This document shows positions 1,336-29,293 of a stretch of DNA of 64,000 nucleotides, one piece after another. Origin of the DNA: Dehalococcoidia bacterium (GTDB taxonomy: Bacteria; Chloroflexota; Dehalococcoidia; Lucifugimonadales; UBA3495); contig OZ219748.1 in assembly GCA_964291335.2 (NCBI GenBank), positions 609,479 through 673,478 on the forward strand, in the 5' to 3' direction. Every line of letters begins with the position of its first letter. Position 1 is the stretch's first letter. The notes beneath the pieces are model-generated. The model saw only the letters and a list, made by a program, of their open reading frames with translations. It did no database searches and was not told the DNA's origin. The position numbers and the translations under genes were made by a program.

Positions 1336-3150
1336 TTGGCAAGCAGATTGGCAGCGGGCGATTCAGCCGGCCGGGGTCAGGATACAGGGGTCTGCTGGCT
1401 TCCCTGGGGCCCGGCAGCCTTTGACCTGGCCGAAAAGGAAGACCGGCCGATTTTACTCTCCATTTCGGCGGTCTGGTGTTACTGGTGCCACGTTATGGAT
1501 GCCGATACCTACAGCGACGGCGAGGTGGCTCGTTTCATCAACAACCACTTCGTTCCGGTAAAGGTGGATAACGATCATCGGCCCGATATTAACGCCCGCT
1601 ACAACGTTGGCGGATGGCCTACCACCGCCTTCTTAACCCCGCACGGCGGCTATATTGCCGGCGCCACCTACCTGCCGTCGGATCAGCTACTGGCCATGCT
1701 GCTGGAGGTTCGGAGGGCTTACCAGGAAGATAAGGCGAGCCTCTACGACCAGGCGGCCCAGTTGCAGCGGCAAAGGCAGGAGTTTGCTAACCGCGCTGCC
1801 GCCGGGCCGGAACCGGAGCATCGCCTGGTGGACCTGATTGCCCGCCGCATGGCCGGCGCTTATGATCCCCGCAACGGGGGCTTTGGCGAGCAGCCCAAGT
1901 TTCCTTCCGCCCCGATACTTCGGTTTTTGCTGCACCGCTATCGCACCACCGGCGAAGCGTTCTATCGCGCCATGCTGGAAAAAAGCCTGGACGCCATGGC
2001 CGCGGGCGAACTCCGCGACTGCGTGGAAGGGGGGTTCTTCCGGTATTGCGCCCAGGCGGATTGGACCGAGGTTCAGCGGGAAAAACTCCTTGAAGACAAC
2101 GTCCACCTGGCTCGGGTCTATCTTGATGCCGGCTTGCTTTTGGGGCGGAAAGACTACCGCAGCATAGCCGGCCAGACCATTGATTACCTGTTGAAGGTAC
2201 TGTACCACCAGCCGGCTGGCGGCTTTCGGGGCAGTCAGGGGGCTCATTCCGATTATTTTGCTTTGCCGGCGGCGTCCCGGCTTGCCGCCGCTGCGCCAGA
2301 CCCGGACCCATATGCCTACGCCGGCTGGACCGGTCAGGCCGTCTCCCTGCTGCTGGAGGCTTCCTGGAAGCTGCCTCGTCCCTGGCTGGCGCAAACCGCC
2401 GCCGGCATTCTCGATAGCTGCCACGCCATGGCCGCCAGCGGAAGGCTGCCGCATGCTTTCCGTCAGGCGGGAATGCCTTCCCCGCAATTGACCCAACCCG
2501 GCGACCTGTTCTGCGATTGGGCCGCGCTGCTTAATGCTCTGATGGACGCCGGCAATTACTGCCCTGAGCGCCCCGACTTCCTGGCCCATGCAGTAAGCGT
2601 TGCCGAGCAAATGGAGAAGCGTTTTTACGACTCCGTCCGGGGAGGTTTTTTCGATGTGGAAGCGGACCCCGAAGCAAAGGGTTACCTGCGTACCCGGGAA
2701 AAGGCTTTGCCGGATAATTCTCTGGCGGCTGAAGCCCTGCTGAAGTTGCACTACGCCACCCGGGATAACCGCTACCGGCGCTGGGCAGAACGAACTCTCA
2801 GCGCCTTTGTCGAGGCCAACCGGGACCATGGCGAGCACGCCGCCGCCTACGCCGCTGTCGTTGACCAGTACCTCCATCCGCCGGTGGAAATCACCATAGA
2901 AGGCCAGCTGACCGGCGCCGAAACCAGGGCCATGGTTGCAGCGGCAATGGCTATTGATTACCCGAATGTGCTAATCAAGCCGGCGGCAGCCTTGCCCGCA
3001 ACCCCAACCTCGGCCCATGTCTGCATCGACGGCGTCTGCTTCCCGCCAGTTCAGGAACCGTCAGCCTTGGCCGTCGCTGTCGCCGCGGCTTTGGCTGACC
3101 CTGAACCCGGCCCGGTGGGGAACGTTTTCGAGGCATTTACCGGCTTCTGA
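1336..3150 (+). CDS. Thioredoxin-domain protein, DUF255/YyaL family (thioredoxin fold plus six-hairpin glycosidase-like domain)
   Basis: The ORF track gives 1078-3150. The conserved block LLSISAVWCYWCHVMD...VPVKVDNDHRPDINARYN..GGWPTTAFLTPHGG matches the family N-terminus. An in-frame TTG at 1336 is preceded by AGGAG at 1325-1329, so it is the likely true start. The start is uncertain. Confidence 0.8.
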   Translation: MASRLAAGDSAGRGQDTGVCWLPWGPAAFDLAEKEDRPILLSISAVWCYWCHVMDADTYSDGEVARFINNHFVPVKVDNDHRPDINARYNVGGWPTTAFLTPHGGYIAGATYLPSDQLLAMLLEVRRAYQEDKASLYDQAAQLQRQRQEFANRAAAGPEPEHRLVDLIARRMAGAYDPRNGGFGEQPKFPSAPILRFLLHRYRTTGEAFYRAMLEKSLDAMAAGELRDCVEGGFFRYCAQADWTEVQREKLLEDNVHLARVYLDAGLLLGRKDYRSIAGQTIDYLLKVLYHQPAGGFRGSQGAHSDYFALPAASRLAAAAPDPDPYAYAGWTGQAVSLLLEASWKLPRPWLAQTAAGILDSCHAMAASGRLPHAFRQAGMPSPQLTQPGDLFCDWAALLNALMDAGNYCPERPDFLAHAVSVAEQMEKRFYDSVRGGFFDVEADPEAKGYLRTREKALPDNSLAAEALLKLHYATRDNRYRRWAERTLSAFVEANRDHGEHAAAYAAVVDQYLHPPVEITIEGQLTGAETRAMVAAAMAIDYPNVLIKPAAALPATPTSAHVCIDGVCFPPVQEPSALAVAVAAALADPEPGPVGNVFEAFTGF

Positions 3151-3200
3151 ATTCCCTGACCGAACCCGGAAACCGCAAGTTCAACACGGGAGGGTTACCT

Positions 3201-4988
3201 CTGAAGACCGCAAGCTGCAACGACCTTCGCGAAGACCAGATTGACCGCCAGCATACCCTGGCTGGCTGGGTGAGCCGCCGCCGGGACCACGGCGGCATAA
3301 TCTTCGTTGACCTGAGAGACCGATCCGGTCTGATTCAGGTGGTGTTCAACCCGGAATTAGCCCCCGACGCCTGCGCCACTGCGGAGGAACTGCGGGGGGA
3401 ATGGGTCATCGAGGTTCAAGGGAAGGTGGCTCGCCGCCCGACCGGTTCAGAGAACCCGGCTATTCCTACCGGAAACGTGGAGTTTATCGCCCATAAGGTG
3501 AAAGTGCTTAACTCTTCGCTCACGCCGCCTTTCTATATCAGCGACGACGTGGAAGCGGACGAAAGCCTGCGCCTGAAGTACCGTTATCTGGACCTGCGGC
3601 GTCCCCAAATGCAGCGCAACTTGACCCTGCGCCACCGGGTGGTCAAATACATCCGGGATTTTCTCGACGCCCGGGGCTTTCTGGAAATCGAAACCCCGAT
3701 TCTGATTAAGAGTACCCCTGAGGGCGCACGGGATTACCTGGTCCCCAGCCGTTTGCAGAAGGGCAGTTTCTACGCCCTGCCTCAATCTCCCCAGCAGCTT
3801 AAGCAGCTGCTGATGGTTTCCGGGGTGGAAAAGTACTTCCAGATTGCCCGCTGCTTCCGGGACGAGGACTTGCGGGCAGACCGCCAGCCAGAGTTTACCC
3901 AACTGGACCTGGAAATCAGCTTCGTCGAGCAGGAAGACGTCCTGCGGCTCACCGAGGAACTTTATACCGGAATGGTTCAATGCCTGGTTCCGGAAAAGCG
4001 GCTGCTTACGCCCTTCCCCCGTCTGGATTATCAGGAAGTGATAGCCAGCTATGGCAGCGACAAGCCCGATTTGCGCTTCGGCTTGAAGTTGACCGATGTA
4101 TCCGAATTGGCGAAAGAGACCGATTTCAGAGTCTTCCGGTCTGTCATCGCCCAGGGCGGGATAGTGAAGGGATTGGTAGCCCCGGGTCAGGGCCACTACA
4201 CCGGCTCCGATATGCGCCGTCTGGAGGACACCGCCAGGGAGTTCGGGGCCGCCGGGATGAGCCACGTCCGGCTGGGGGCCGCCGATTCACTGTCCAGCCT
4301 GACTGAGGAGCAAATATCGCTGTCCCCCGGTTTGCGGATGCCCCCGGACTGGTCGCTGCGGTTGGCGAAAAGGATGGAGGCTCAACCCGGCGACCTGATT
4401 TTGCTGATGGCGGGGCCGGCTCGTCAAGCTAACCGGTGGCTCAGCGAGATGCGCAACTATATGGCCGACCGGTTGGGCCTGATTGACGATAAAACGCTTT
4501 CTTTTGCCTTCGTTACCGGCTTTCCGCTGTTCGAGTGGGACGAAACCAATCAGCGCTGGGATTCTTCGCATCACCCGTTTACTGCGCCGGTCGAGGGCCA
4601 GGAAGCGCTGCTGGAAGGAACGGATCCGGGCAGCATCAAGTCTCAGGCTTACGACCTGATTTGCAATGGCTCGGAACTGGCCAGCGGCAGCATCCGAATT
4701 CACCGCCGCGAGTTGCAGGAGCGGATTTTCGCCGTTCTGGGCTATAACCAGGAACAGGTTCAGGAACGGTTCGGCCACATACTGGAGGCTTTCGAGTACG
4801 GAGCGCCGCCCCACGGGGGCATTGCTCCAGGGATTGACCGGCTGGTAACCATCCTGGCCGGCGCCAGCTCCATTCGCGATGTTATCGCCTTTCCCAAGAC
4901 CCAGAGCGGCGCAGACCTGCTCTTTGGCGCCCCGGCGCCGGTAGAACCCGGCCAGCTGCGAGACTTGGCATTGCGGCTGGCGGAATAG
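3201..4988 (+). CDS. aspS: Aspartate--tRNA ligase (bacterial type)
   Basis: The track ORF 3270-4988 starts at GTG inside the conserved OB fold. The upstream in-frame sequence LKTASCNDLREDQIDRQHTLAGWVSRRRDHGGIIFVDLRDRSG is colinear residue for residue with the E. coli AspRS N-terminus (MRTEYCGQLR...GWVNRRRD). GGGAGGG at 3188-3194 precedes CTG at 3201. Class II motifs FRDEDLRADRQPEFTQLD and GGIAPGIDR are present. Confidence 0.93.
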   Translation: MKTASCNDLREDQIDRQHTLAGWVSRRRDHGGIIFVDLRDRSGLIQVVFNPELAPDACATAEELRGEWVIEVQGKVARRPTGSENPAIPTGNVEFIAHKVKVLNSSLTPPFYISDDVEADESLRLKYRYLDLRRPQMQRNLTLRHRVVKYIRDFLDARGFLEIETPILIKSTPEGARDYLVPSRLQKGSFYALPQSPQQLKQLLMVSGVEKYFQIARCFRDEDLRADRQPEFTQLDLEISFVEQEDVLRLTEELYTGMVQCLVPEKRLLTPFPRLDYQEVIASYGSDKPDLRFGLKLTDVSELAKETDFRVFRSVIAQGGIVKGLVAPGQGHYTGSDMRRLEDTAREFGAAGMSHVRLGAADSLSSLTEEQISLSPGLRMPPDWSLRLAKRMEAQPGDLILLMAGPARQANRWLSEMRNYMADRLGLIDDKTLSFAFVTGFPLFEWDETNQRWDSSHHPFTAPVEGQEALLEGTDPGSIKSQAYDLICNGSELASGSIRIHRRELQERIFAVLGYNQEQVQERFGHILEAFEYGAPPHGGIAPGIDRLVTILAGASSIRDVIAFPKTQSGADLLFGAPAPVEPGQLRDLALRLAE

Positions 4989-5017: not shown

Positions 5018-6220
5018 ATGTCAACCGCTAACCCTTTCAATTACGAAGGCCTGTATTCAGCGCAATCGGTGTCCGTTGCCCGGGGCGAAAACCGCCACGC
5101 CAAATACGACTTTGCTGTAGCCTACCCGGACCCGGACACCTTGCCTTTGGCGGGGCTGGCCGAAGCCACCCGCCGGGCCCTGGCACGGGAAGGAAAGGGC
5201 TTGGCCCTGTATCCGGTCTCGGCCGGCCTGCCTTCCCTGCGGGAATGGGTGGCCGACAAGCTGGCCCGGGACCGGGAAATGACCGTCAGCCCGGACAACA
5301 TCGTGCTGACTTCCGGTTCCGGAGAAGCTATTGCCATGCTTATCGCTGCCCTTACCGACCCGGGCGACGTGCTGCTTACCGAGGAATACGTTTACCTGGG
5401 CACCTTGCGGGCCATGCAGCGCTTTGGCGCCGACGTCCGCAGCGTCAAGTGCGATGACCAGGGCCTGATCCCCGAGGAGTTGGAAAATACCCTGGCAGCG
5501 GTGGCTGCTGAAGGCAGGAAGGTCAAATTCCTCTACACCATTCCGGTATTCCAGAACCCTCTGGGTTGGACTATGCCGTTGGAACGGCGAGTGAAGACCC
5601 TGGAAATTACACAACGCTACGGTGTTCCGGTCCTGGAAGATGATTGCTACGTGGACTTGCGGTTCGAAGGGGAAGGGGTTACCTCCATGCACTCCCTGGA
5701 CGATACTGGGCGAGTGCTCTACGTGGGGTCTTTCTCCAAAATAGTGGCGCCGGGGATGCGCCTGGGATACCTGGTCGCCCCCGGCGAGGTGCTCCAACGG
5801 GCGATGAGTTTTAAAGGCGGCGGGGGCGTTAATCAGTTCGCGGCGCTGGCGGTTCAGGAATACGCCCGGGAAAATATGGAGCGGCATATTGACGAGCAGA
5901 ACCAATCGCTGCGGCTCAAGCGGGACGCCATGCTGTCGGCTCTGGGAGAGAACTTTGGCAGCGCCGCCCGGTGGAGCAAGCCCGAGGGCGGGCTGTACCT
6001 TTGGCTGGAGCTGCCGGAAGGAACCGACCTGGCCGGCCTGCAAGAGCAAGCCTTCAATGAGGGGGTAGGCTACTATAACGGAACCATGTTCTCTCCGGAA
6101 GGTCGCGGCGCCAACTGCGCTCGCCTGTGCTTTGGCTATCCTGCCGCGGAAACCGTTTCGGAAGGCATAGCGGAACTGGCCCGCATATTTGAGCGGCACG
6201 GGATACTTGGGGGCAAATAG
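5018..6220 (+). CDS. PLP-dependent aminotransferase, class I/II (AAT fold type I)
   Basis: 400-aa ORF with a PLP-lysine context SFSKIVAPGMRLGYLVAP and LTSGSGEAI. AAGGAGG lies upstream of the ATG. Confidence 0.8.
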   Translation: MSTANPFNYEGLYSAQSVSVARGENRHAKYDFAVAYPDPDTLPLAGLAEATRRALAREGKGLALYPVSAGLPSLREWVADKLARDREMTVSPDNIVLTSGSGEAIAMLIAALTDPGDVLLTEEYVYLGTLRAMQRFGADVRSVKCDDQGLIPEELENTLAAVAAEGRKVKFLYTIPVFQNPLGWTMPLERRVKTLEITQRYGVPVLEDDCYVDLRFEGEGVTSMHSLDDTGRVLYVGSFSKIVAPGMRLGYLVAPGEVLQRAMSFKGGGGVNQFAALAVQEYARENMERHIDEQNQSLRLKRDAMLSALGENFGSAARWSKPEGGLYLWLELPEGTDLAGLQEQAFNEGVGYYNGTMFSPEGRGANCARLCFGYPAAETVSEGIAELARIFERHGILGGK

Positions 6221-7667: not shown

Positions 7668-7829
7668 AGAGCCGTTTCACCTTCGGCTATCGGCGCTCCC
7701 CTGTCGGGATACGGCAGGTTGCCCCACTGCCCATTGCAAAATCAGACGCGCGGCGCATGCAGATAGCTTAATCATCAACCAGCCGTTCCTGAAATCACCA
7801 TCCACATACTTTGCGTTGACAACGAGGCA

Positions 7830-7858
7830 TTGTCTAGCCGGCGGCCAACGTGTATATT
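7830..7858 (+). promoter_or_regulatory. Sigma-70-like promoter for the zinc-ribbon/TPR membrane protein gene
   Basis: TTGTCT, a 17-nt spacer, then TATATT. It sits about 95 nt upstream of the ATG at 7952. Confidence 0.35.
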
Positions 7859-7951
7859 CTAAAGAGTAGCTACTCTCCAAAACCATCCCCGACCAATCGT
7901 TCAGGAATCGCCAAATCGAGACAAGGAAGGTCTATTCGGAGGCAGTCCGGT

Positions 7952-8728
7952 ATGAGTATAGCGGATATACTGCTCTTGCTCGCGCTGGCGGTGGTCGTCC
8001 TTTGGACCAGCCGTCTGGCCGGAAACAAGGGGTTGAATTCCTGGATGTGGGGCATTGGGTCGGCGCTGCTGATTCTGGTAGGCTGGAGCTTTTTCCGTCA
8101 ATTTCTGGGTGTCGTGGTAATGGTTCCCCTGGTTTTCCTGCTGTTATACAAGAGCCCGCTCTTCAGCCGGAACCGGCAGCAGGGTTCGCCCCCCTGCCCT
8201 CGCTGCGGCGCGCCGGAAACCGGCGGCTTGAACTTCTGTGTCCAGTGTGGCTGGGATTTAACCAGAGCTTACGGCGAAACCGCCACCGAGGAACCACCGG
8301 CTCCCCCCGCTGCGGAACAGCCTCCGGTACGGGAGCCAGTGGCCCAGCGAGGGGACCGAACAAGGGAGATTATAACCGAACCGGCCAGCGCCGAAGGGCC
8401 GACTGCCGAACCTGATACCGCCGCCGAACCCGTTTCAGCCCAGTCCGACAGCCCGGCCAATGCGCCTCGGGAAAAGGAACCGGCGCCAGCGCCACCAGTT
8501 GCCGCAAAACCGCAACCAAGGCGCATTCCTACCGCAGCCAGTATGACGGAACGGGGAAAGGCTTTGTTCAGTCAAGGCCGGTTCCAGGAAGCCATAGACC
8601 AGTTTACCAAGGCCATTGCCCTGGACCCTGAATACCGGGAGGCGTGGGAGCAGCGGGCGGCGGCATACGGGCGGTTGGGCCGCGCTGAACAGCAAGCCAA
8701 CGACCAGCGCCATCTGGAAGCGATTTAA
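7952..8728 (+). CDS. Membrane protein with zinc-ribbon and C-terminal TPR-like repeat
   Basis: GGAGG lies 8 nt before the ATG at 7952. There are two or three hydrophobic helices (ILLLLALAVVVLW, GIGSALLILVGWSFF, VVVMVPLVFLLLY), a CPRCGAPETGGLNFCVQCG zinc ribbon, an acidic/Pro-rich linker, and a TPR-like segment FQEAIDQFTKAIALDPEYREAWEQRAAAYGRLG. Confidence 0.6.
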   Translation: MSIADILLLLALAVVVLWTSRLAGNKGLNSWMWGIGSALLILVGWSFFRQFLGVVVMVPLVFLLLYKSPLFSRNRQQGSPPCPRCGAPETGGLNFCVQCGWDLTRAYGETATEEPPAPPAAEQPPVREPVAQRGDRTREIITEPASAEGPTAEPDTAAEPVSAQSDSPANAPREKEPAPAPPVAAKPQPRRIPTAASMTERGKALFSQGRFQEAIDQFTKAIALDPEYREAWEQRAAAYGRLGRAEQQANDQRHLEAI

Positions 8729-9592: not shown

Positions 9593-10582
9593 CTACCGAA
9601 AAGAAAGGGCCACCCGTTCCAGGAATATTTCCAGTTGCCGCTCCGGCTCGAACGAGGCAAAGCGAACCACCACGGTTTGCGCTCCGGCAGCTACATATTC
9701 GGCTACCCGAAAGGCGACCCGCTCCGGATCGCCAAAAGGCCCCCAGCGGGAACCCCAGATATTGGCTCCATAGTAGCCCAGCAGGTATTCCTCCGCCTCG
9801 GCTTCAGCCCGGGATACATCCGGGTCCATGTTGACCGTCAAATACATGACCGTTGAAAGGGACGCCGGATCCCGGCCGGCAGCGGCGGCCTGTTCCCGCA
9901 CTGCCGCCACTACCTGACGGTATTCTTCAGGGGTATCTGAAATGGATATCAGGCCGTCAGCTAACTGCCCGGCCCGGCGGAACTGGGCCTCCCGCGCTGG
10001 GGAACGCCAGTGGCACGCCAGGTAAATGGGAACCCCGTTGGCCTGTACCGGCTTCGGCGCAACGCTTACTGCATCCAGGCTGAAGTGGCGGCCAGTGAAA
10101 GATAATGGCGCTTCCCGACCTAACCCCTTCACAATTTTGACCATCTCTTCCAGTCGCCCGGCCCGGCGTCGGGCATTAACTCCGGCCGACTGCCATTCCT
10201 GCCGCTGTTCGGCATTAAACGCCCCGCCTGCGCCGGCGGCAATCAGCAGACGGCCCCGGGAGATTAAGTCCACCGTGCCGAGGGTCTGGGCCAGCAGAAC
10301 CGGGCTCCGCAGGGCCATCAGCAGTACCGCCGTGCCCAGACGGACCCGGCTGGTCCGGGCGGCAACCGCGGCCAAAGTGGTCAGCGGCTCCAGGCGTGGC
10401 TTGGCCGTTAGGCTGTCGCCAACCCACACCGAACCCAGGCCCGCCGCTTCTGCCCGGCAGGCCAGGTCAATGATGCGGTCAGCGCTTCCCGGCGGCGAAC
10501 CGGCCAGCAGCAAGCCGCGGGTCGGCAGCAGTATCCCCAGTTCAGCCGCCGGCGAAGCGATTTCAGTTGAAGCTTGAGCCAT
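9593..10582 (-). CDS. LLM-class (luciferase-like) flavin/F420-dependent oxidoreductase
   Basis: 329-aa TIM-barrel LLM pattern (GSVWVGDSL, RLGTAVLLMALRSPVLLAQ). It overlaps the cofC stop, so it appears co-transcribed with the F420 genes. F420 dependence is inferred from context. Confidence 0.7.
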   Translation of the reverse strand: MAQASTEIASPAAELGILLPTRGLLLAGSPPGSADRIIDLACRAEAAGLGSVWVGDSLTAKPRLEPLTTLAAVAARTSRVRLGTAVLLMALRSPVLLAQTLGTVDLISRGRLLIAAGAGGAFNAEQRQEWQSAGVNARRRAGRLEEMVKIVKGLGREAPLSFTGRHFSLDAVSVAPKPVQANGVPIYLACHWRSPAREAQFRRAGQLADGLISISDTPEEYRQVVAAVREQAAAAGRDPASLSTVMYLTVNMDPDVSRAEAEAEEYLLGYYGANIWGSRWGPFGDPERVAFRVAEYVAAGAQTVVVRFASFEPERQLEIFLERVALSFR

Positions 10583-16844: not shown

Positions 16845-18890
16845 TCAGGCGGCCTGCCGCCGCCGGTACAGATACACCCCGCCGGCAGCCAGAGCTACCA
16901 CCACCAGCCCAATTACTACCCACAGCAGCCAGTTGATGCCGCCCGGTTCTTCCGGCGGGGCCGGCGGCATCGGCGTCGGCGGTATGGCCGTCGCCGTCGG
17001 GGGCGGTACTGGCGTGGCCGTGGGTTCCACCTCGGCCAGGGCCGGGGCGGCCGTCGTGGCCGTCGACTCCGGGCGCACCGCATCCAGGGCGCGGTCCGGC
17101 AGCAGGGGCGTGGCCGTCGGCGCAGTCGTGGCCGTAGCTGTAGCTGTGGGCCGGCTGGTGGGCATCGCCGTGGCCGTGGGCTGCGCCGGCGTTGTTGCCG
17201 TGGCCGTGGGCGCTGGGGTGGCCGTTGGCGTGCGCATTGCCAACGGCGTCGGCGTCCGGGTGGGTACTGCCCGCCGGGTCGCCGTGGGAGTCCGCAGCAG
17301 CATTTCCGCCGGCAGCATGGTCGGCGTTGGCGTGCCGGTGGGCAGCGCCGGCGCTGTTGCCGTGGGCGTCCACATTGCCACCGTGGGTATGGCCGTGGGC
17401 GTCGCCGTCGGCGTGTTGGTCGGCGACGCCGGCGCGGTGGTGGCCGTCGGCGTGGGCGTGCTGGTGGCCGCTGCCACTACCCGGCGGGTCGGCGTCGGGG
17501 TCGGCATATCCGCCGGGGACGGTAGGTAGCCCTGAACCACTATGGGGTGCGGCGTATTGGTGGCTGTGGGCGTTGGCGTGTTGGTAGCCGTGGGCATTGG
17601 CGTGTCGGTGGGTGTGGGCGTGTCGGTGGCTGTGGGCGTGGGCGTGCTGGTGGCCGTGAGTGTTGGCGTGTCGGTGGGCGTGTTGGTGGCCGTGGGTGTT
17701 GGCGTGTTGGTGGGCGTGCTGGTGGCCGTGGGTGTTGGCGTGTTGGTGGCCGTGAGTGTTGGCGTGTCGGTGGGCGTGTTGGTGGCCGTGAGTGTTGGCG
17801 TGTCGGTGGGCGTGCTGGTAGCCGTGGGCGTGGGCGTGTTGGTGGGCGTGCTGGTGGCCGTGGGTGTTGGCGTGCTGGTAGCCGTGGGCGTGGGCGTGTC
17901 GGTGGGTGTGGGTGTTGGCGTGCTGGTAGCCGTGGGCGTTGGCGTGTCGGTGGGTGTGGGTGTTGGCGTGCTGGTAGCCGTGGGTGTGGGCGTGTCGGTG
18001 GGTGTGGGCGTGGGTGTATCGAAGGGCGTACTAGTCGCATGGACTACGGACCAAGGGCTATTGCCGGCGTCATTGACTGCCCGTAGCCGGAACTGGTAAT
18101 CGACCCCGTTTTCCAGCCCGGTTATAGTGTAGCTGCGGTCGGTCTCCTTGACGGTAACCACCGGGCTGCTGTCGGGCCAGCTTTCGCCCACTTTGCGATA
18201 CTGGAATTCGTACCGGGTTACCCCGGCGGTCAAGGGGACATAATGGACGGTTGCCTGCTTATCCCCGGCGTCCACTCGAGGTAATCGAGGCACCTCCGGA
18301 GGGCTCGGCGTTGAAGTGGGCGTCGGTGTGGGTGTATTTTCATACGTAGTGTCCGAAAGGGATATGGACCAAATGCTATTGCCGCCGTCATTGATCGCAC
18401 GCACCCGGAACTCGTAAGTCGTGCCAGCGTCCAGCCCGGTTATGGTGTAGCTGTTACTAGTGTCCTTGACTGTGACCGTGACGGTGGCGCCGCTGCTGGG
18501 CCAGCTTTCGCCCACTTTGCGATGCTGGAATTCGTACCGGGTTACCCCGCTAAGGACCTCATGATTGATGGTTATCTGCCGATCCCCGGCGACAGTCCCT
18601 TCGAGGGCCGGCTGAGGAGGTGGGGTCAGCGTTCCCGTCGGCGTTGGGGTGGGCGTCGGCGTATCCGTTGGCGTGCTGCCCTGGGCTTGCAGCGGTGTCG
18701 GCGACCCGGTGAAGGACAGGGTCAGTAAAAAAGGCCCGGCCAGCAGGATGACGAGCGACAGGGCCAGCCCCGGCAGGTTTCGGTCAATTCTCCGTAGATA
18801 GCCGTTCAGCCCAGCCCAAACTCGGGGGGGGGGGGGGGGGGGGGGGGTATTCATTCCGGAGCCGGGGCGGTGTCCGCCTTTATCTGCCAT
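16845..18890 (-). CDS. Cell-surface protein: N-terminal leader with poly-Pro, signal/anchor helix, two fibronectin type III domains, Thr/Pro repeat stalk, conserved C-terminal module with TM anchor
   Basis: 681 aa. [25 protein letters not shown], then [18 protein letters not shown]. Two Fn3-like units ([14 protein letters not shown]...[14 protein letters not shown] and [14 protein letters not shown]...[14 protein letters not shown]). [11 protein letters not shown] repeats. C-terminal [36 protein letters not shown] lies 7 nt upstream of the ATG. Confidence 0.85.
17545..18020 (-). repeat. Coding tandem repeat (Thr/Pro-rich, [11 protein letters not shown]-type units)
   Basis: Visible periodic gtgggcgtgttggtggccgtg-type units on the + strand. 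All six frames are open here, which creates spurious track ORFs. Confidence 0.8.
18824..18847 (-). repeat. Homopolymeric tract, G24 on + strand (C24 on coding strand), within the 5' coding region
   Basis: Counted directly: 7+10+7 G across 18824-18847. It encodes T-P7 in the leader of the 16845-18890 gene. Confidence 0.9.
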
Positions 18891-18958
18891 AGCTTACCTC
18901 GTCAGGATATTGGTTTGGTTGAAGCAGCCCTGTTCCCGTCTGCTGGTTGCGGCTATGG

Positions 18959-18991
18959 ATTTTAGCAGAGAAGTTCCGGCGGGGGAATACC
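18959..18991 (-). promoter_or_regulatory. Promoter-like module shared with the paralog: TATTCCC-N15-TGCTAAAAT
   Basis: The - strand reads GGTATTCCCccgccggaacttctcTGCTAAAAT, about 65 nt upstream of the ATG at 18890. The same architecture and spacing occur at 25399-25429. Confidence 0.4.
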
Positions 18992-19204
18992 CTGCGGCCC
19001 GGGCTTTTATTTGCTCCGGCTGGTGGGGACGCCCGGTTCCCGGGACGAAGTGGTAGTGGCGCTGGCCGCAACGGTAAGTCTGCCGGCTGCGGGAGCGTCC
19101 GTATTTGGGCCGCCAGTTGGCGCCGCAGCGGGGGCATTCCGTCCCGGAATGCTCCGGGTTGGGCCATGCTGCTGCCTCCCGGCGGTCTGATTTCACGGCG
19201 AACC

Positions 19205-19249
19205 CGGTTATACACTTTACCAACGCATGTTGGGAATGCCGCGTCAGGC
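19205..19249. repeat. Inverted, diverged copy of the 28-nt array unit plus a 16-nt exact match to 16601-16616
   Basis: TATACACtttaCCAACGCatgTTGGGAATgCC compares with the reverse complement of the array unit, CGATACACCAACGCGCATTGGGAATACC. GGAATGCCGCGTCAGG is identical at 19233-19248 and 16601-16616. Confidence 0.6.
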
Positions 19250-19445
19250 GCTTTCTCCCCGGCGTGGTTAAACGGCAGCGGTTATTTGACACCGACCGGT
19301 GAAACGGGAGAATAATGTAAATCCGGCCAATTTACGCCCGGACGGTCAAGTTGAAAATCTCTCGCCGCCAATTATAATTGGCTTCAGGCGTCTCCGGCCT
19401 GAATCAGGCCCCAGCTTCCAGTTGAACCGCGAGGCGGAATCTATA

Positions 19446-22026: not shown

Positions 22027-24630
22027 ATGACCGACCATACCGATAAATACCGCCGTTGGCTGACGCCCTTTCGCCGCATCCTGGAACTGGAAAAAGCCAA
22101 CGGCTGGCAAAACAAGGCTGTCGTGGGCGGGCTGGACTGCTTTCTCCGCCAGTGGGCCGGCGAGCTGGCCGCTTTTCTGGAGGACGCCCGGGCCAACGGC
22201 GGGCTGGCCCGCCCGGTTTACGCCGCGTTAACCCCGGAACAGCGGCAGGAATGGGCCGCTCGGTGGCGCCCCTTGCTGGAAGGCCGCTCCCCGCCCGAAC
22301 CAGCCCCGGCCGATGAACGCCAGAATTGGGCAGAGCCGTCGCACGCCCCGCCGGAAGGCTGCCCGGCGCCGGCGGCCGCAGCTGCACCGCCACCGCCGGC
22401 GGAAGCCCGGCAAAAGGCTGCCGACCAGCCGGCCCGGCCTGGTTCCCCCGGCAGCGGCGCCGGCAGTCGGGCGCCGGCAGCCGGGCTTTCAGCCGACAAG
22501 GACCTGGAGGCCCCGGTCAAGACCCTGCGGCGGGTTTCCGATAAGCAATCGGCCCAGCTGGCCCGGCTGGGCGTTAACACCATCCGGGACCTGCTGTATT
22601 TCTTCCCCCGCCGCCACATTGACTATTCCCGGAAGGTTAAGGTGGCCGAGCTGACCTACGGTCAGGAGGCAACGGTGCAGGGCCGCCTGCAGCATGTGGC
22701 GGAGACCCGACGCGGGCGGCCGGGGCAGAAAGCTACCGAGGCCCTTTTGTCGGACGAAACCGGCAGCGTTCAGGTAACCTGGTTCAACCAGCCGTACCTG
22801 TCGCGAACCCTGAAACCCGGCATTGCCCTGGCAGTAAGCGGCCGGGTTGAGGCGTACGGCGGCCGGCGGGTGTTTGAATCGCCGGAGTATGAAATCATCT
22901 CCCGGAACCGGGCGGCCATTCACACCGGCCGAATGCTGCCGGTCTATCCCCTGACCGCCGGCCTTTGGGCCAGGACGCTCCGGGGCCTTACCTGGCAGGC
23001 GCTGCGGGATTACCTGCCTCAAGTGGACGAGACGCTGCCGCCAGCGGCCCGGCAGCGGGCGGACCTGTGTCCCTTGCCGGAAGCCATCCGGCAGGCCCAT
23101 TACCCGGACAGCGAGGCGCACTGGGCCGCCGCCCGCCGCCGGCTGGCCTTCGAAGAACTCTTGACCTTGCAGCTGGTGGTGCTCACCTGGCGGCAGCGGG
23201 CCAACGCGGGGGTATCGGGAATCGCCATAACCGGGGACGCCGGCCTGACCGACCGCCTGATTGCTTCCCTCCCCTTTTCGCTGACCGGGGCGCAGCTGCG
23301 GTGCATCCGGGAGATCCTGGCGGACATGCGCCGGGGCACGCCGCCGATGAACCGCCTGCTGCAAGGCGAGGTGGGCAGCGGCAAAACCGTAGTCGCCCTG
23401 GCCGCCCTGCTCTCCGCCATCGGCGCCGGCCGCCAGGGCGCCATTATGGCGCCTACCGAAGTGCTGGCCGAGCAGCACTTTCAGACGGTAACCCGGCTGC
23501 TGGACGGCATGGCCTTTACCCACCAGTCGGACAACCTGCTGACCGCCTCGGTGGGTTCCCTGGGAAGACCGATAACCGTCGGCCTGCTTACCGGAAGCAC
23601 CCGGGCCCGGCCGCGCCGCAAAATTTCCGGCATGGCTTCGGAAGCCAGCCTGAACCTGCTCATCGGCACCAATGCCCTGATTCAGGAGGGGGTGGAACTG
23701 CCCAACCTGGCCCTGGCGGTTATCGATGAACAGCACCGCTTCGGAGTAATGCAGCGCTCCGCCCTGCGGCAGAAGAGCAGCGGGAACCCGCACACTCTGG
23801 TAATGTCGGCCACCCCCATACCACGCACCCTGACCCTGACCCTGTACGGAGACCTGGACCTTTCCAGCCTGGATGAACTCCCACCGGGCCGACCGGAAAC
23901 CCGTACCCGCTGGGCGGAACCGGACCGGCGGGAGGCGGTTTACGAGTTCATCCGCCGCCAGGCGCTCGATGGACGGCAGGCCTTTATCGTCTATCCTCTG
24001 ATTGATGAGTCGGAGGCCATTGATACCAAAGCCGCGGTCGATGGACACCGCCGGCTGTCCGGCGAGGTCTTTCCCGACTTGCGGCTGGGCCTGCTTCACG
24101 GGCGAATGTCGGCGGCGGAAAAGGACCGAACCTTGAGCCGTTTCCGCGACGGCGAACTGGACATTCTGATTACCACGGCGGTGGTTGAAGTCGGCATCGA
24201 CGTGCCTAACGCTACGGTTATGCTGATTGAGGGAGCCGACCGGTTCGGGCTTTCCCAGCTGCACCAGTTCCGCGGACGCGTCGGCCGCGGCCAGCACAAG
24301 AGCTACTGCATCCTTATGTCCGACGACCCCTCTGAAACCGCCAAAGAGCGGTTGGCCGCCCTGGAAAGCACCAGTGACGGGTTTCAACTGGCCGAAGCGG
24401 ACCTGGCGTTGCGGGGGCCGGGCGAATTCTTCGGCACCCGGCAAAGCGGGCTGCCCAGCCTGAAAATGGCTCAACTCGCCGACCGGCAATTGCTGGAACT
24501 GGCCCGGAACGAAGCCCGGCTGATTCTGGACGACGACCCCGGGTTAAGCCGCCCGGAGTATCAGCCTCTGGCGGCCCAGTTAGCCCGTTTCCGGGCTAGG
24601 GGCAGCGCCGCCGGCGCAGAAATCAGCTAG
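22027..24630 (+). CDS. recG: ATP-dependent DNA helicase RecG with about 165-aa N-terminal extension
   Basis: Wedge-domain region, Walker A GEVGSGKTVVA, DEQHRFG, QLHQFRGRVGRG. The extension contains an Ala/Pro-rich low-complexity segment. Confidence 0.93.
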   Translation: MTDHTDKYRRWLTPFRRILELEKANGWQNKAVVGGLDCFLRQWAGELAAFLEDARANGGLARPVYAALTPEQRQEWAARWRPLLEGRSPPEPAPADERQNWAEPSHAPPEGCPAPAAAAAPPPPAEARQKAADQPARPGSPGSGAGSRAPAAGLSADKDLEAPVKTLRRVSDKQSAQLARLGVNTIRDLLYFFPRRHIDYSRKVKVAELTYGQEATVQGRLQHVAETRRGRPGQKATEALLSDETGSVQVTWFNQPYLSRTLKPGIALAVSGRVEAYGGRRVFESPEYEIISRNRAAIHTGRMLPVYPLTAGLWARTLRGLTWQALRDYLPQVDETLPPAARQRADLCPLPEAIRQAHYPDSEAHWAAARRRLAFEELLTLQLVVLTWRQRANAGVSGIAITGDAGLTDRLIASLPFSLTGAQLRCIREILADMRRGTPPMNRLLQGEVGSGKTVVALAALLSAIGAGRQGAIMAPTEVLAEQHFQTVTRLLDGMAFTHQSDNLLTASVGSLGRPITVGLLTGSTRARPRRKISGMASEASLNLLIGTNALIQEGVELPNLALAVIDEQHRFGVMQRSALRQKSSGNPHTLVMSATPIPRTLTLTLYGDLDLSSLDELPPGRPETRTRWAEPDRREAVYEFIRRQALDGRQAFIVYPLIDESEAIDTKAAVDGHRRLSGEVFPDLRLGLLHGRMSAAEKDRTLSRFRDGELDILITTAVVEVGIDVPNATVMLIEGADRFGLSQLHQFRGRVGRGQHKSYCILMSDDPSETAKERLAALESTSDGFQLAEADLALRGPGEFFGTRQSGLPSLKMAQLADRQLLELARNEARLILDDDPGLSRPEYQPLAAQLARFRARGSAAGAEIS

Positions 24631-25381
24631 CCGGCCCGCCATCGGCCGGCGGCCGGAAGCGGTAGCCCACATTCCAGACCGTTTCAACAAAGGAATGGTC
24701 CGGGTCTTCAATTTTGGCGCGCAGCCGCCGCACATGCACATCCACCGTCCGGGTGCCGCCCAGATAATCGTAGCCCCAAACCTGACTTAAGAGAACATCC
24801 CTCGTATAAACCCGCCCCGGGTTAGAGGCCAGCATCACCAGCAACTGAAACTCCTTGTAAGTCAAAGACACCCGCCGCCCGGCCATGCTCACTTCGTAGC
24901 GTTCCAGGTCAATCGCCAAATCGCCCAACTTCAGCAGCTGCCCGCCGGCCGGGCCGCTTACCCGGTAAATCGCCTGCCTGATGCGCGCCGCCAGTTCCCC
25001 TTCCTGCATCGGGCTCAGAATAAACTCATCCGGGTTCAGCGTCGGGTCATACGAAGCCACCAGCTCCCGGGGCACCACGGCCAGCGCCGGCAGGTTCAAC
25101 CGCCGGCAGCCCTCCGCCAGCTCCCGGCACCCGAAAGCATCGAAAGACATCACGTCCAGCAGCACGGCATCCACCGGGGATTGGGCCGAAGAAACCGCAT
25201 CTTCGACCATCGCCATGTCTGAACCAAACCGGCAGGACAACCCCGCCTGGCTGACCGATTCCAGCAGGGGTTGCAGCCCGGCGCCATGCTTTGCCAGAAG
25301 AAAGACGCTGTACAAGGAACCATCCGGCGGGCAGAAAGTGGTTTGCCCGCCCAGTATATTCGATTCGGCCCGACAAACCAA
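24623..25381 (-). CDS. OmpR/PhoB-family winged-helix regulator with degenerate (probably phosphorylation-independent) receiver domain
   Basis: The C-terminus LTYKEFQLLVMLASNPGRVYTRDVLLSQVWGYDY...VDVHVRRLRAKIE...VWNVGYRF is canonical. In the receiver, the acidic pair is replaced (VFLLAKH), the Asp is kept (LLDVM), the Thr position is LAVVPRE and the Lys position is FILSPM. The exact start is uncertain. Confidence 0.8.
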   Translation of the reverse strand: MVCRAESNILGGQTTFCPPDGSLYSVFLLAKHGAGLQPLLESVSQAGLSCRFGSDMAMVEDAVSSAQSPVDAVLLDVMSFDAFGCRELAEGCRRLNLPALAVVPRELVASYDPTLNPDEFILSPMQEGELAARIRQAIYRVSGPAGGQLLKLGDLAIDLERYEVSMAGRRVSLTYKEFQLLVMLASNPGRVYTRDVLLSQVWGYDYLGGTRTVDVHVRRLRAKIEDPDHSFVETVWNVGYRFRPPADGGPAS

Positions 25382-25398
25382 ACTCCGGCCGCCAAAGC

Positions 25399-25429
25399 TA
25401 TTCCCTTATCGGAGCTTTTCTGCTAAAGT
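25399..25429 (+). promoter_or_regulatory. Promoter-like module shared with the paralog: TATTCCC-N15-TGCTAAAGT
   Basis: gcTATTCCCttatcggagcttttcTGCTAAAGT, about 68 nt upstream of the ATG at 25497. It has the same spacing as the module at 18959-18991 (- strand). Confidence 0.4.
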
Positions 25430-25496
25430 TAACAACCGTAGCCCCGCTGACGGAAAATACTCATTGGACCAAGTCTGCAACCTGACGAGGCAACCT

Positions 25497-25565
25497 ATGG
25501 CAGATAAAGGCGGCCACCGCCCCGGCTTTGGAATTACCCCCCCCCCCCCCGAGTTTGGTGGGTAA
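25497..25565 (+). other. 22-codon leader ORF homologous to the N-terminus of the paralog, out of frame with the main ORF; stop overlaps the main ATG (TAATG)
   Basis: ATG at 25497 with GAGG 7 nt upstream, encoding [22 protein letters not shown]. The paralog begins [25 protein letters not shown]. One extra C would read ...[15 protein letters not shown] in frame with 25565-29293. Confidence 0.7.
25537..25550 (+). repeat. Homopolymeric tract C14 in the leader of the second surface-protein gene
   Basis: Counted directly: 4+10 C across 25537-25550. Confidence 0.9.
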
Positions 25566-28500
25566 TGCGAATGCGACACTTGCATAGAATTAACCCAATC
25601 CTGCTTGGGCTGGCCCTCATCGCCCCCCTCATCCTCGCGGTGATGCTCGCCTCCCCCGGACGCGTTGGCGCATCAATCCTCGCCTCCTTCGCCAACCAGT
25701 CCGCCGTCCCGTCCGCCCCAACCGGCTTCAACGCAACTGCCGGCCAAAGCAGGGCAAACCTTTCCTGGACCAACCCCAACAACGACACCATCGACTACTA
25801 CGAATACCAGCAGAAAGTGGGAGACGCCAACTACGGCGCCTGGGCGGAGATTCCCAACTCCCACAAAGACACCACCAGCGCCCGGATAACCGGCCTCGCC
25901 GCCGGCGTCGCCCACAAGTTCAAGATTCGCGCCAGAAACTCCGCCGGCCCCGGCGCCGCGTCCGCAGAGGCAACCGCAACCCCCTCCGCCCCATCGCTAA
26001 GGCTCTTCGTAACCGCCGGCAACGGACAGGCAACCCTCAAATGGGAACTCTCCGGCCCCTACGCAAGTGTTTCGACGTGGAAAATTTGGAGTTACTCCAT
26101 TTTTGAGAATAGGTCGTGGTCCAACGAGATAGAGATATGCGCACAAGTTTCGAATGCGGGATGCCCCAGCCGCAGAACACATACGGTATCCAGCCTCACT
26201 AACGGGCAAGAGTACCAAATCGAAGTCATTCTGACCCCCAGCAACCTCGTCAGCGGGCTTGGAAGCTTCGGTGGGTATTCCAACGCAGTGACCTTCACTC
26301 CTTCGGATTCGGCGCCCGTCCCGTCGGGAACCCCCGCCGCCCCCGCCGGCTTCACCGCCACCGCCGGCGGCAGCAAAGCAACCCTCAGCTGGACCGACCC
26401 AGGCGATGAAACCATCAAAAACTGGCAGTACCGCAGCAAGCGAGGCGGACGCACCTACGGAGACTGGACAGACATCCCCAGCTCCGACAAAGATACGACC
26501 ACCTACGAAGTCGCCGGCCTCGCCAACGGCACGGCGTACGCCTTTCAGGTTCGCGCCGTCAACGGCGCCGGCTACGGCGCCGAACCCGCAGCGCAGAGCG
26601 CCACCCCCGCCGACGCACCGACGCCTACCCACACGCCTACCCACACCCACACGCCGACGGCCACACCTACCGATACCCCCACGCCTACCCACACGCCGAC
26701 GGCAACGCCCACCGACACGCCTACGCCTACCCACACCCCCACGCCTACCCACACGCCGACGGCAACACCTACCGACACGCCCACGCCGACGGCAACACCT
26801 ACCGACACGCCCACGCCGACGGCAACACCTACCGACACGCCCACGCCGACGGCAACACCTACCGACACGCCCACGCCGACGGCAACCCCAACCGATACAC
26901 CCACGCCGACGGCAACACCTACCGATACACCCACGCCGACGGCAACCCCAACCGACACACCCACGCCGACGGCAACACCTACCGATACGCCCACGCCGAC
27001 GGCAACACCTACCGATACGCCCACGCCGACGGCAACACCTACCGACACGCCCACGCCGACGGCAACACCTACCGACACGCCCACGCCGACGGCAACACCT
27101 ACCGATACGCCCACGCCGACGGCAACACCTACCGACACGCCCACGCCGACGGCAACACCTACCGATACGCCCACGCCCACCGCTACACCCACCGACACGC
27201 CCACGCCTACCGCTACACCAACCGATACGCCCACGCCTACCGCCACACCTACTGATACCCCCACGCCTACCGCTACACCCACCGACACACCCACGCCCAC
27301 CGCTACACCCACCGACACACCCACGCCTACCGCTACACCAACCGATACGCCCACGCCTACCGCCACACCTACTGATACCCCCACGCCTACCGCTACACCC
27401 ACCGACACACCCACGCCCACCGCTACACCCACCGACACACCCACGCCTACCGCCACCCCAACCGATACGCCCACGCCTACCGCCACACCTACCGACACGC
27501 CCACGCCTACCGCTACACCAACCGACACCCCCACGCCCACCGCTACACCAACCGATACCCCAACCCCGACGGCAACACCCACGCCCGGAGGCGCACCCAC
27601 CGACACGCCCACGCCTACCGCCACACCTACTGATACCCCCACGCCCACCGCTACACCCACGGATACCCCCACGCCTACCGCTACACCTACCGATACGCCT
27701 ACGCCTACCGCCACACCTACCGATACGCCCACGCCTACCAATACACCAACCGACACCCCCACGCCCACCGCTACACCAACCGATACCCCAACCCCGACGG
27801 CAACACCCACGCCCGGAGGCGCACCCACCGACACGCCCACGCCTACCGCCACACCTACTGATACCCCCACGCCCACCGCTACACCTACCGACACGCCCAC
27901 GCCCACCGCCACACCTACCGATACCCCAACCCCGACGGCAACACCCACGCCCGGAGGCGCACCCACCGACACGCCTACTGATACCCCAACCCCGACGGCA
28001 ACACCCACGCCTACCAACACACCCACCGATACACCCACGCCTACCAGTACGGCCACGCCAACCCCAACGCCGACCGCCACCCATACGCCCACGCCGGACC
28101 CGCAGTCCATCACCAGCGGCGCCGGGACGGAAGCAGACCCGTACATCATCCGGGCGGCGAACCAGGATATCGAGGCGGCGGCGTTTTTCAGGGAACGGGT
28201 GGCCTCTGACGGCGGCCGCCTGGTGGCAACCTGGTTCCGCTTTGACCTGACCGAGCCGATGGCCGGGCGGTTTGGCGCCAGCATAATGACCGACCCGACG
28301 GGCCACAACATCGATACCCATTTCCGGGCGTACAACGCCGCGGACGAGGAGCTGGCGAAGATTTCGTTGGTACGCCCGGAGACGCCGCAGATGCTGAAGA
28401 CCGACGAACTGACCGGGGTGAGCTACCTGACGCTCCGGCTGGAGGACTGGGACCAGCCGAAGATAACCAGCCTGAAGGTGCGTTTCACCACGCAGCCGCC

Positions 28501-29293
28501 GGCGACTCCCACGCCTACACCGACCAACACGCCTACACCGACCAACACGCCCACACCGACGCCTACACCGACCAACACGCCAACGCCAACGCCCACACCG
28601 ACCAATACGCCCACGCCGCCGCCCGGAGTGGTGCGGAGCGCCCCCATTCGGCGGGCGGCGGCAACCCCGACGCCGACCCGCCGGGTGGTGCGGGCAGCAA
28701 CCCGCACGCCGACGCCCACCGCAACCACCACCGCAACCCCGACGGCCACTGCCACCAGCACGCCAACGGCGGCAGACAGGCCCATAGCGGCAATGCGGAC
28801 GCCCACGGCGACCCGGACGGCCCGGCTCGCCGGCGCCGCCACGCCGACCCGGCGGCCGCTGGTCATGCTGCGGACGCCAACCGCCACCTTGCGGGCAATA
28901 CCCACCCGCACCCGGCCCCCGGCAGTAATGCGGACAGCAACGGCCACGCCAGCGCCGACCGCCACCGCCACAGCGATGCCGACCAGGCGGCCCAGCCCGA
29001 CGGCCACCGCCACCGCAACGGCCGTCCCGTTGCTGCCGGACAGCGCCCTGGACGCAGTACGCCCGGAGCCGACGGCCACGACGGCCGCCCCGGCCATGGC
29101 CGCCGCCGAACCGACGGCCACGCCAGTACCCCCGCCCACGGCCACGCCAATACCGCCGACCGCCACGCCGACGCCAGCCACGCCGCCGGAACCCGGAGCC
29201 GGCATCAACTGGCTGCTGTGGGTAATCATCGGGCTGGCGGTAGCCGCGGTAATCGCCGGCGGGGTCTATCTGTACCAGCGGCGGCAGCAGTAG
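25565..29293 (+). CDS. Large cell-surface protein: signal/anchor helix, three Fn3-like domains, about 490-aa Thr/Pro decapeptide repeat stalk, globular beta-sandwich-like domain, conserved C-terminal module with TM anchor
   Basis: 1242 aa as drawn. [25 protein letters not shown]. Fn3-like units ([17 protein letters not shown]...[14 protein letters not shown] and [17 protein letters not shown]...[14 protein letters not shown]). ([10 protein letters not shown])n repeats. Domain [15 protein letters not shown]...LKVRFT. C-terminal [30 protein letters not shown]. The biological start may be 25497, depending on poly(C) length. Confidence 0.85.
26617..28098 (+). repeat. Coding tandem repeat, 30-bp period ([10 protein letters not shown] decapeptide), about 48 units with sub-families and higher-order units
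   Basis: One sub-family, acacctaccgacacgcccacgccgacggca, runs about 26750-27170. A second, acacccaccgacacgcccacgcctaccgct, runs about 27170-27560. The insert ccaaccccgacggcaacacccacgcccggaggcgca (TPGGAP) recurs near 27556, 27786 and 27926. Confidence 0.9.

Follow-up and report, generated by a model that had tools for sequence, protein, structure and literature searches.

A poly(C) tract in the putative translated leader of a surface-protein gene: a candidate three-state contingency locus in Dehalococcoidia

Phase variation through changes in homopolymer length is textbook knowledge for host-adapted pathogens of the genera Neisseria, Haemophilus, Campylobacter, Bordetella and Treponema. In this work, we describe a candidate of this kind in a Dehalococcoidia bacterium (Chloroflexota), located in a stretch of 64,000 nucleotides (nt) of contig OZ219748.1 (positions 609,479 to 673,478), hereafter the window. 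Here a gene for a predicted surface protein, gene B (25565-29293, forward strand), is preceded by a putative translated leader with a run of 14 cytosines, and a paralog, gene A (16845-18890, reverse strand), has a homologous leader with a longer run. We favor, at a probability of roughly 0.6, the interpretation that the tract of gene B acts as a contingency locus that moves between three frame states through slipped-strand mispairing and tunes the expression of its surface protein. Gene B and paralog A would then plausibly join the established homopolymer contingency loci, as members from a phylum and a gene family where such loci are undescribed, and, in gene B, with a three-state geometry in which one frame puts a stop on a start. 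Phase variation in Chloroflexi/Chloroflexota or Dehalococcoidia is described in none of the papers that our full-text literature searches retrieved.

Among documented cases, the nearest is nanH3 of Gardnerella, in which a poly(C) tract of 8-14 residues, about 100 nt into the open reading frame (ORF), varies in length within cultures, and in which out-of-frame lengths lead annotators to call a downstream alternative start (bioRxiv 10.1101/2020.09.16.300947). Like gene B, nanH3 combines a C run with a surface protein that has an N-terminal signal peptide and a C-terminal transmembrane anchor. The nanH3 tract follows the signal peptide, so that a shifted frame yields a truncated peptide and the switch is ON/OFF, whereas the tract of gene B precedes it. 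Gene B further differs in having kept an internal ATG with a Shine-Dalgarno (SD)-like site, by which an out-of-frame length need not be OFF, and in being known here from assembled sequence alone. More than two expression states are described for licA (lic1) of Haemophilus influenzae, where the number of (CAAT)n repeats sets which of several starts is in frame (PMC2212159). Gene B would share this multi-start logic, but the licA repeat is a tetranucleotide with all alternative starts upstream of it, whereas gene B has one start on each side of a homopolymer and one frame that places a stop codon on the downstream ATG.

In Neisseria, a poly(G) tract in the signal-peptide coding region of pilC and CTCTT repeats in the leader of opa act as strict ON/OFF switches. 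The likeness to gene B lies in a slippage-prone tract within the 5' coding leader of surface-protein genes that form a multigene family; unlike gene B, pilC and opa have no retained downstream start, and they belong to another phylum and to host-restricted pathogens. Overlapping stop and start codons (ATGA, TAATG, TGATG) are associated with translational coupling in operons. Gene B has such an overlap, TAATG, and an upstream ORF with a good SD, but coupling would hold at one class of tract lengths only and the downstream start has an SD-like site of its own. In still other switches the homopolymer occupies a promoter spacer, as in the poly(C) of Bordetella fim, in Neisseria porA and opc, in Mycoplasma vlp and in the poly(G) of Treponema pallidum tpr. 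These resemble relatives of gene B on OZ220477.1 and on contig L003, with runs of 15 to 17 guanines (G15-G17) inside TTGACA...TAnAnT, whereas the window tracts lie downstream of a leader ATG. The sabA rheostat of H. pylori is another promoter-spacer homopolymer switch (PMC4081817).

Leaders, tracts and starts of gene B and paralog A

Reading of positions 25200-25800 revealed a leader ORF that opens at ATG 25497, 6 nt downstream of an SD sequence GAGG (25487-25490; predicted duplex -5.9 kcal/mol), and runs for 22 codons plus stop (25497-25565) through a tract of exactly 14 cytosines (C14, 25537-25550) read as proline codons. The tract lies within the putative translated leader, 14 nt upstream of the main ATG. 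In the assembled frame the leader ends at TAA 25563-25565, which shares one base with ATG 25565 and so forms TAATG (25563-25567). An SD-like GGTGGG (25557-25562), predicted to pair at -6.0 kcal/mol with the CACC of the assumed 16S tail, could serve two internal starts, standing 2 nt before ATG 25565 and, at a better spacing, 8 nt before a second in-frame ATG (M3, 25571-25573). All duplex energies were computed with an assumed anti-SD sequence, CACCUCCUUU. One additional cytosine (C15) would fuse the leader to the main ORF through a PPPRVW junction.

Paralog A (681 amino acids) shows the same GAGG-6 nt-ATG arrangement and shares the first ten leader codons with gene B; its leader is fused in frame across a tract of 24 cytosines (18824-18847, reverse strand; G24 on the forward strand), with the same PPPRVW junction. 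The one-base displacement of the C14 leader, the 22-codon upstream ORF (uORF), the TAATG overlap, the common GAGG spacing and the C15 reading with the junction of the paralog had all been described in an earlier note on this DNA, and each of them was confirmed. All tract lengths given in this work are those of the assembly consensus, which does not vouch for the exact value to within one base.

Apart from these two tracts, the whole window contains no homopolymer of at least eight residues. The two account for all 22 matches to C9, against 6.6 +/- 3.2 in shuffled sequences, where 0 of 100 shuffles reached 22; the runs are thus far beyond what base composition predicts. They also occupy homologous positions, since the 5' regions of both genes can be aligned over a stretch that starts about 100 nt before the ATG and includes the tract and GAGTTTGG. 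Because of their exclusiveness, their excess over shuffles and their homologous placement in the leaders, the pair is not attributable to chance.

The tracts stand in the 5' coding region of genes for products of a predicted surface-exposed type. The protein of gene B (1242 amino acids) comprises a signal-peptide-like N-terminus, FN3 (Pfam fn3, 1.2e-23), a very long Pro-Thr region of tandem repeats, a domain without family match and a C-terminal transmembrane anchor; that of paralog A also contains FN3 (Pfam fn3, 9.2e-23) and a very long stretch of Pro-Thr repeats. Both have a basic and then hydrophobic N-terminus and end in a hydrophobic segment followed by YLYQRRQQ or YLYRRRQAA. The predicted signal peptide of gene B (25565-25672) has an n-region of 11 residues, an h-region of 17 and a c-region ASPGRVGA/S (the slash marks the cleavage site), and the ...GAS after the h-region is kept in homologs. 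A scan of both proteins against NCBIfam and Pfam for sorting signals found only FN3. The predicted architecture is that of a secreted, membrane-tethered surface protein.

Both genes also carry long repeat arrays. Gene B contains about 42 near-perfect 30-nt tandem repeats, coding for 10-residue units, at 26687-27945 (forward strand), and paralog A has a similar, less regular array at 17543-18029. These tandem repeats provide the two proteins with another source of length variation besides the poly(C) tracts, and one that keeps the frame.

Related loci in other genomes

A profile scan of one genome per species retrieved nine loci from three complete metagenome-assembled genome (MAG) chromosomes titled 'Dehalococcoidia bacterium': L004 on OZ220473.1, L006 on OZ220464.1, and L005 and L007-L012 on OZ220477.1. 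Their identity to the N-terminal 246 residues of gene B is 49-77%. A protein search found only one close relative of gene B, P0001, on the ENA contig L003, and a gene-A-like protein, P0002, from a 2.75-Mb contig. Exact look-ups of the window's RecG, gene B, gene A, GLUCM-like and DegV proteins, aimed in part at strain variants with other tract lengths, found none on record, and no synteny was found between the flanks of the window and the related loci. The leader DNA pattern ATGGCAGATAAAGGCGGNCACCG had no match in the genome contig collection; in the metagenome contig collection it had two, both inside an unrelated gene, which we rejected as chance matches.

Seven loci, some of them recent duplicates, are of a leader type, with an SD-ATG, a short leader, a poly(C) tract, a linker of 14-32 nt and, at the signal-peptide n-region, an ATG. 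They are paralog A, gene B, four copies in L004 (L004a to L004d) and one in L006. Compared with C24 and C14 in the window, the tracts are C16, C19, C16 and C15 in L004a to L004d and C21 in L006. The fused frame is found in four of the seven, that is, paralog A and L004a-c (MTPDKFRRSRADKSPGSTPPPPPQHYGPGAAMMGILRGIDRKL...). In L006, C21 is out of frame and reads through the ATG; fusion would result from C20 or C23, and TGATG would arise with C19 or C22. In L004d, a minus-strand copy with its tract at 1123-1137 of L004, a TAG stands 4 nt before the ATG and stops close all three frames; this copy represents the module in a form with a fully decoupled uORF, and its main ATG has its own GAGG. The three tandem copies L004a-c differ in their flanks at 1 of 45 and 2 of 60 bases, with C15 in the fourth copy, and between L004b and L004c 3 of 105 flanking bases differ while the tracts differ by three (C19 versus C16).

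The leader DNA, GAGG-N6-ATGGCAG[A/G][T/C]AAAG...GGCTCCG[G/T]AATG, is homologous to the 5' ends of OZ220477.1 genes whose proteins begin MADKDDFRSGSVMSPFPVAKTAIAAIAALALV... and MAGKDDFRSGSVMSAPIAKVAAAAL..., so that genuine N-termini homologous to the leader can be named (MADKDDFRSGSVMSPFP...); for the leader ORF of gene B, the homology covers the 5' part and the true N-termini MADKDDFRSGSVMS... of these paralogs. In the homologs the N-terminus runs straight into a membrane helix, and the poly(C) of the window takes the place of TCCCCCTTCCCC. Because of this homology and of the position of the tract, we regard the leader as a genuine coding N-terminus and take fusion to be the ancestral reading. 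On the other side of the tract, the N-terminus of gene B as read from ATG 25565/25571 aligns with the MKSLIARYHGNRxLSWIIPLAAAL... of leaderless orthologs. The internal ATG is kept in L004 and L006 and lost in paralog A only, which has CTG AAC where the others have CTG ATG. With the leader homologous to N-termini and the leaderless orthologs starting at the position of the internal ATG, both starts of gene B look real.

The predicted strength of the internal start goes along with the assembled frame. Duplex energies at internal starts are -9.5 kcal/mol in L006, -7.0 in L004d and -3.5 to -4.9 in L004a-c. The loci without an effective independent start, namely paralog A (no ATG) and L004a-c (weak SD), are all fused, and those with their own SD and ATG (gene B, L004d and L006) are all non-fused. 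Such a pattern would be expected if the assembled states were biologically meaningful and mostly 'expressed', which it can only suggest.

In all four lineages with an internal ATG (gene B, L006, L004a-c and L004d), one of the frames brings a stop onto the start as T[AG]ATG. The overlap arises from GTA-ATG in gene B, giving TAATG, and from CTG-ATG in L006 and L004d and ATG-ATG in L004a-c, giving TGATG. In the pooled sequence of the window, L004 and L006, TA or TG stands before 13.7% of all ATGs; for four overlaps in four lineages this corresponds to a p of 3.5e-4 under independence of the lineages, which holds only in part. The recurrence moderately supports a stop/start geometry that is more than an accident. 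The earlier note had taken the overlap for a termination-reinitiation arrangement, and this stands in part. A stop overlapping the downstream start is present at TAATG and recurs in the four lineages, and the upstream ORF, which has a GAGG at 6 nt and homology to real N-termini, may be translated. The downstream start, though, does not lack an effective SD, the predicted energy of GGTGGG (-6.0 kcal/mol) being equal to that of the leader SD (-5.9 kcal/mol). Since the internal start has this SD-like site of its own, reinitiation is not required for expression, and independent initiation there is plausible from the modeled duplexes.

Other members of the family have their tract elsewhere. In the promoter-type loci, found on L003 and on OZ220477.1 (L005, L007-L012), there is no leader; TTGACA is followed by 1-4 nt, G15-G17 and then TAnAnT or TGGATAAT, and the gene begins MKSLIARYHGNR.... 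Over about 95 kb of these loci, we counted at least 17 different G15-G17 tracts, with spacers that are all of 18-20 nt and never of 17. The tract thus sits in a promoter spacer only in these relatives of the window genes. L003 and L005 come from independent assemblies, with orthologous regions that are 96% identical and G17 in both, and because of this agreement the tracts are reproducible features and not random assembly noise. The tract at L003:1884 (G17) corresponds, at 87% identity, to that at L012:5819 (G15). Length therefore differs among paralogs and orthologs with conserved flanks in this type (G17 versus G15) as it does in the leader type, in paralog A versus gene B (C24 versus C14) and in L004b versus L004c. 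By these layouts, one and the same FN3/Pro-Thr family would be under homopolymer control at two levels, promoter spacing and translated leader.

On the 2.39-Mb chromosome OZ220477.1, the G15-G17 tracts upstream of FN3/Pro-Thr surface-protein genes are clustered near its start and end; examples in L008 are found at 123-139, 2162-2176, 5837-5852 and 9683-9698. A GAAAT...CCCGAAAT motif is kept just upstream of the -35 element in the promoter-type loci. In L007, a family member contains runs of C8 (3458-3465) and C15 (3751-3765) within its coding region, and its frame is seemingly broken around them, the ORF at 2208-3800 ending nonsense-like; the runs may represent an internal frameshift switch or a pseudogene. 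In L011, G16 (3455-3470, reverse strand) abuts the ATG of an unrelated ORF (MLGLSCRAGIVAVKF...AIIDADAHVVESE), so long tracts in that genome are not strictly confined to the FN3 family. In L003, the ortholog of gene B was called as a protein of 174 amino acids (7812-8336), with a frame that breaks after the first FN3 domain (...ASAEENRNPHRPVAKAL...), through either an assembly indel or a real frameshift.

The leader-type relatives have tract-free, sigma-70-like promoters with 17-nt spacers, CTGACA-17-TAAAAT with a TG in L006 and TTGACT-17-TATACT in L004a. The L006 promoter, as called by the promoter scan, contains an element TGCTAAA[A/G]T that it has in common with the window leaders, where we read it as a candidate extended -10. 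In gene B this candidate, TGCTAAAGT (25421-25429, forward strand; hexamer TAAAGT at 25424-25429), lies about 68 nt upstream of the leader ATG, and it is kept as TGCTAAAAT in L006 and in paralog A (18959-18967, reverse strand). For gene B the scan reports TTAACA-18-GAAAAT at 25429-25458 instead. We considered the window tract as a promoter spacer on either strand and rejected it, as inspection and promoter scan place the tract downstream of an SD and an ATG, with no flanking -35 and -10. A structured cis-regulatory leader RNA (riboswitch or attenuator) was likewise rejected as unlikely, because Rfam gave no relevant match for the leader RNA at E <= 1 and folding was no better than in shuffled sequences (z = +0.46 and +1.82).

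A proposed three-state switch and its alternatives

Genes A and B share a 5' module that we read as promoter, SD-ATG, short coding leader, poly(C), short linker and signal peptide. Slipped-strand mispairing at replication would change the length of the poly(C), and this length modulo 3 would set the relation between leader and main ORF. In gene B, C12, C15 or C18 would fuse the leader to the signal peptide, in the ancestral reading driven by the leader SD and ATG. C14, the assembled state, or C17 would end the leader at the TAA on ATG 25565, and C13 or C16 would extend the leader ORF to the TAG at 25585-25587, overlapping the main start by about 20 nt. In the C14 state, the short precursor would most likely still be translated by means of the retained internal ATG and GGTGGG, and ribosomes terminating on the leader could possibly add to initiation at the main ATG. 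The signal peptide would probably be cleaved after ...VGA, as the family keeps ...[VA]GA/S past the hydrophobic segment. Should both precursors, long and short, end up as the same mature protein, the states would differ in amount and not in sequence. The switch of gene B would then be graded, while paralog A, having lost the internal ATG, would be a plain switch, ON at C24, which is in frame, and OFF otherwise. Poly-proline stalling, tRNA-Pro slippage and transcriptional slippage may blur these states.

The earlier note had proposed a toggle between a fused long isoform and a uORF-coupled short one, as opposed to simple ON/OFF. A switch that is more than ON/OFF agrees with the variable tract across the family and with the homology that supports both starts, but there are three frame states and not two, and the distinction between two isoforms is probably moot if the kept ...[VA]GA/S leads to one mature protein. 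The switch of gene B probably sets the amount of one protein rather than a choice between two.

Several points weigh against such a switch. The overlap may be inherited, through the codons CTG-ATG, rather than selected. The L004d copy, closed in every frame before its ATG, would suit decay no less than regulation. Statistics on frame and SD are weak, coming from seven leader-type loci that include recent duplicates. The promoter scan does not confirm the candidate extended -10 in gene B or paralog A, and the independently assembled L003 and L005 have tracts of equal length. Finally, a one-base consensus error at the 14-mer, with C15 as the true length, is plausible.

Such an error of consensus or assembly would make gene B an ordinary fused ORF with a modal C15, and the uORF and TAATG would be artefacts of a missing base. 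Runs of 14 or more identical bases are the most difficult sites to sequence on any platform, the related records stem from long-read assembly of MAGs (contig name ctg4038l), and both the prevalence of the fused frame (four of seven) and the identity of the C15 junction to that of paralog A would suit an error. We nevertheless hold it to be unlikely. Non-fused states are also found in other genomes, in L006 (C21) and in L004d (C15), and the latter cannot fuse at any length; moreover, an SD and ATG of their own are found in precisely the non-fused loci, a pattern that random length errors would not give. Even with a C15 mode, the tract would remain prone to slippage.

Somewhat less probable still is a vestigial leader, with constitutive expression of gene B through its own SD-like site and ATG 25565/25571 and with the leader and tract surviving as the decaying remnant of a recombined 5' module, devoid of regulatory effect. 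The internal start indeed aligns with that of the leaderless orthologs and is preceded by an SD-like site that equals the leader's in predicted strength, and in L004d, where a TAG closes the fused frame two codons before the ATG, decoupling did occur. Yet the SD, the ATG and the first 13 codons of the leader are intact and about 90% identical to those of paralog A. A pure C14 would hardly last without selection, as neutral tracts quickly gain interruptions, and initiation downstream is normally influenced by translation of a uORF that reaches the main ATG or passes it.

It is improbable that the frames are mixed in every cell by non-heritable slippage, of RNA polymerase or of tRNA-Pro, so that fused protein would be made from C14 by programmed recoding with no change in DNA. 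The run is longer than an RNA:DNA hybrid, which permits realignment at no mismatch cost, and tRNA-Pro is known to shift frame at CCC-C sites (PMC7577736). Such shifts are documented in the +1 direction, however, whereas the fused frame needs a -1 shift, and in a genome-wide transcript survey of E. coli and Buchnera, transcriptional insertions occurred mainly in A and T runs (PMC5574713). Programmed recoding would also keep a fixed out-of-frame arrangement, whereas here lengths and frames vary, four of seven loci being in frame and L004d fusing in none. A G-quadruplex or i-motif regulating transcription regardless of frame can be set aside as very improbable, for although G15-G17 is long enough for a three-tetrad quadruplex and promoter-type lengths cluster tightly at 15-17, the promoter-type tract exactly fills the -35/-10 spacer, the leader-type tract lies in a putative translated ORF with a frame status that correlates with the presence of an independent start, and spacing and frame account for both types without any structure.

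Gene neighborhood and implications

Gene B is divergent from an OmpR-type regulator gene (24623-25381, reverse strand) with a clear Trans_reg_C domain. The regulator has no significant Response_reg match and its NCBIfam alignments begin only at about model position 44, so its receiver domain looks degenerate, as in an atypical or orphan regulator. Directly upstream of the leader of paralog A, a 132-codon ORF (18894-19292, reverse strand) encodes a CxxC...CxxxH zinc-ribbon-like segment (ECPRCGANW...YRCGQRHYHF). Its Pfam matches are all sub-threshold, to transposase and recombinase zinc ribbons (E 0.017-0.038), and it may be the remnant of a mobile element adjoining the duplicated 5' module.

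On a wider scale, we can tentatively picture a Dehalococcoidia 'phasome', in which dozens of FN3/Pro-Thr genes would stand behind two interchangeable cassettes, a promoter poly(G) and a translated poly(C) leader, the latter being a selected three-level rheostat and not an ON/OFF switch. We regard this broader picture as possible but doubtful; if it holds true, no contingency-locus system would have been described in Chloroflexota before it.

Provided that it is functional, the stop-on-start geometry would constitute a compact three-level translational switch. The tracts will also lead to systematic misannotation of genes, as truncated or 'frameshifted', in long-read MAGs, and they offer a direct handle on population heterogeneity from existing reads. 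The occurrence of G/C runs at two levels in one family, across related uncultured genomes, points to strong and recurrent selection for stochastic surface variation, for which phage receptors and recognition by hosts or grazers are obvious candidates.

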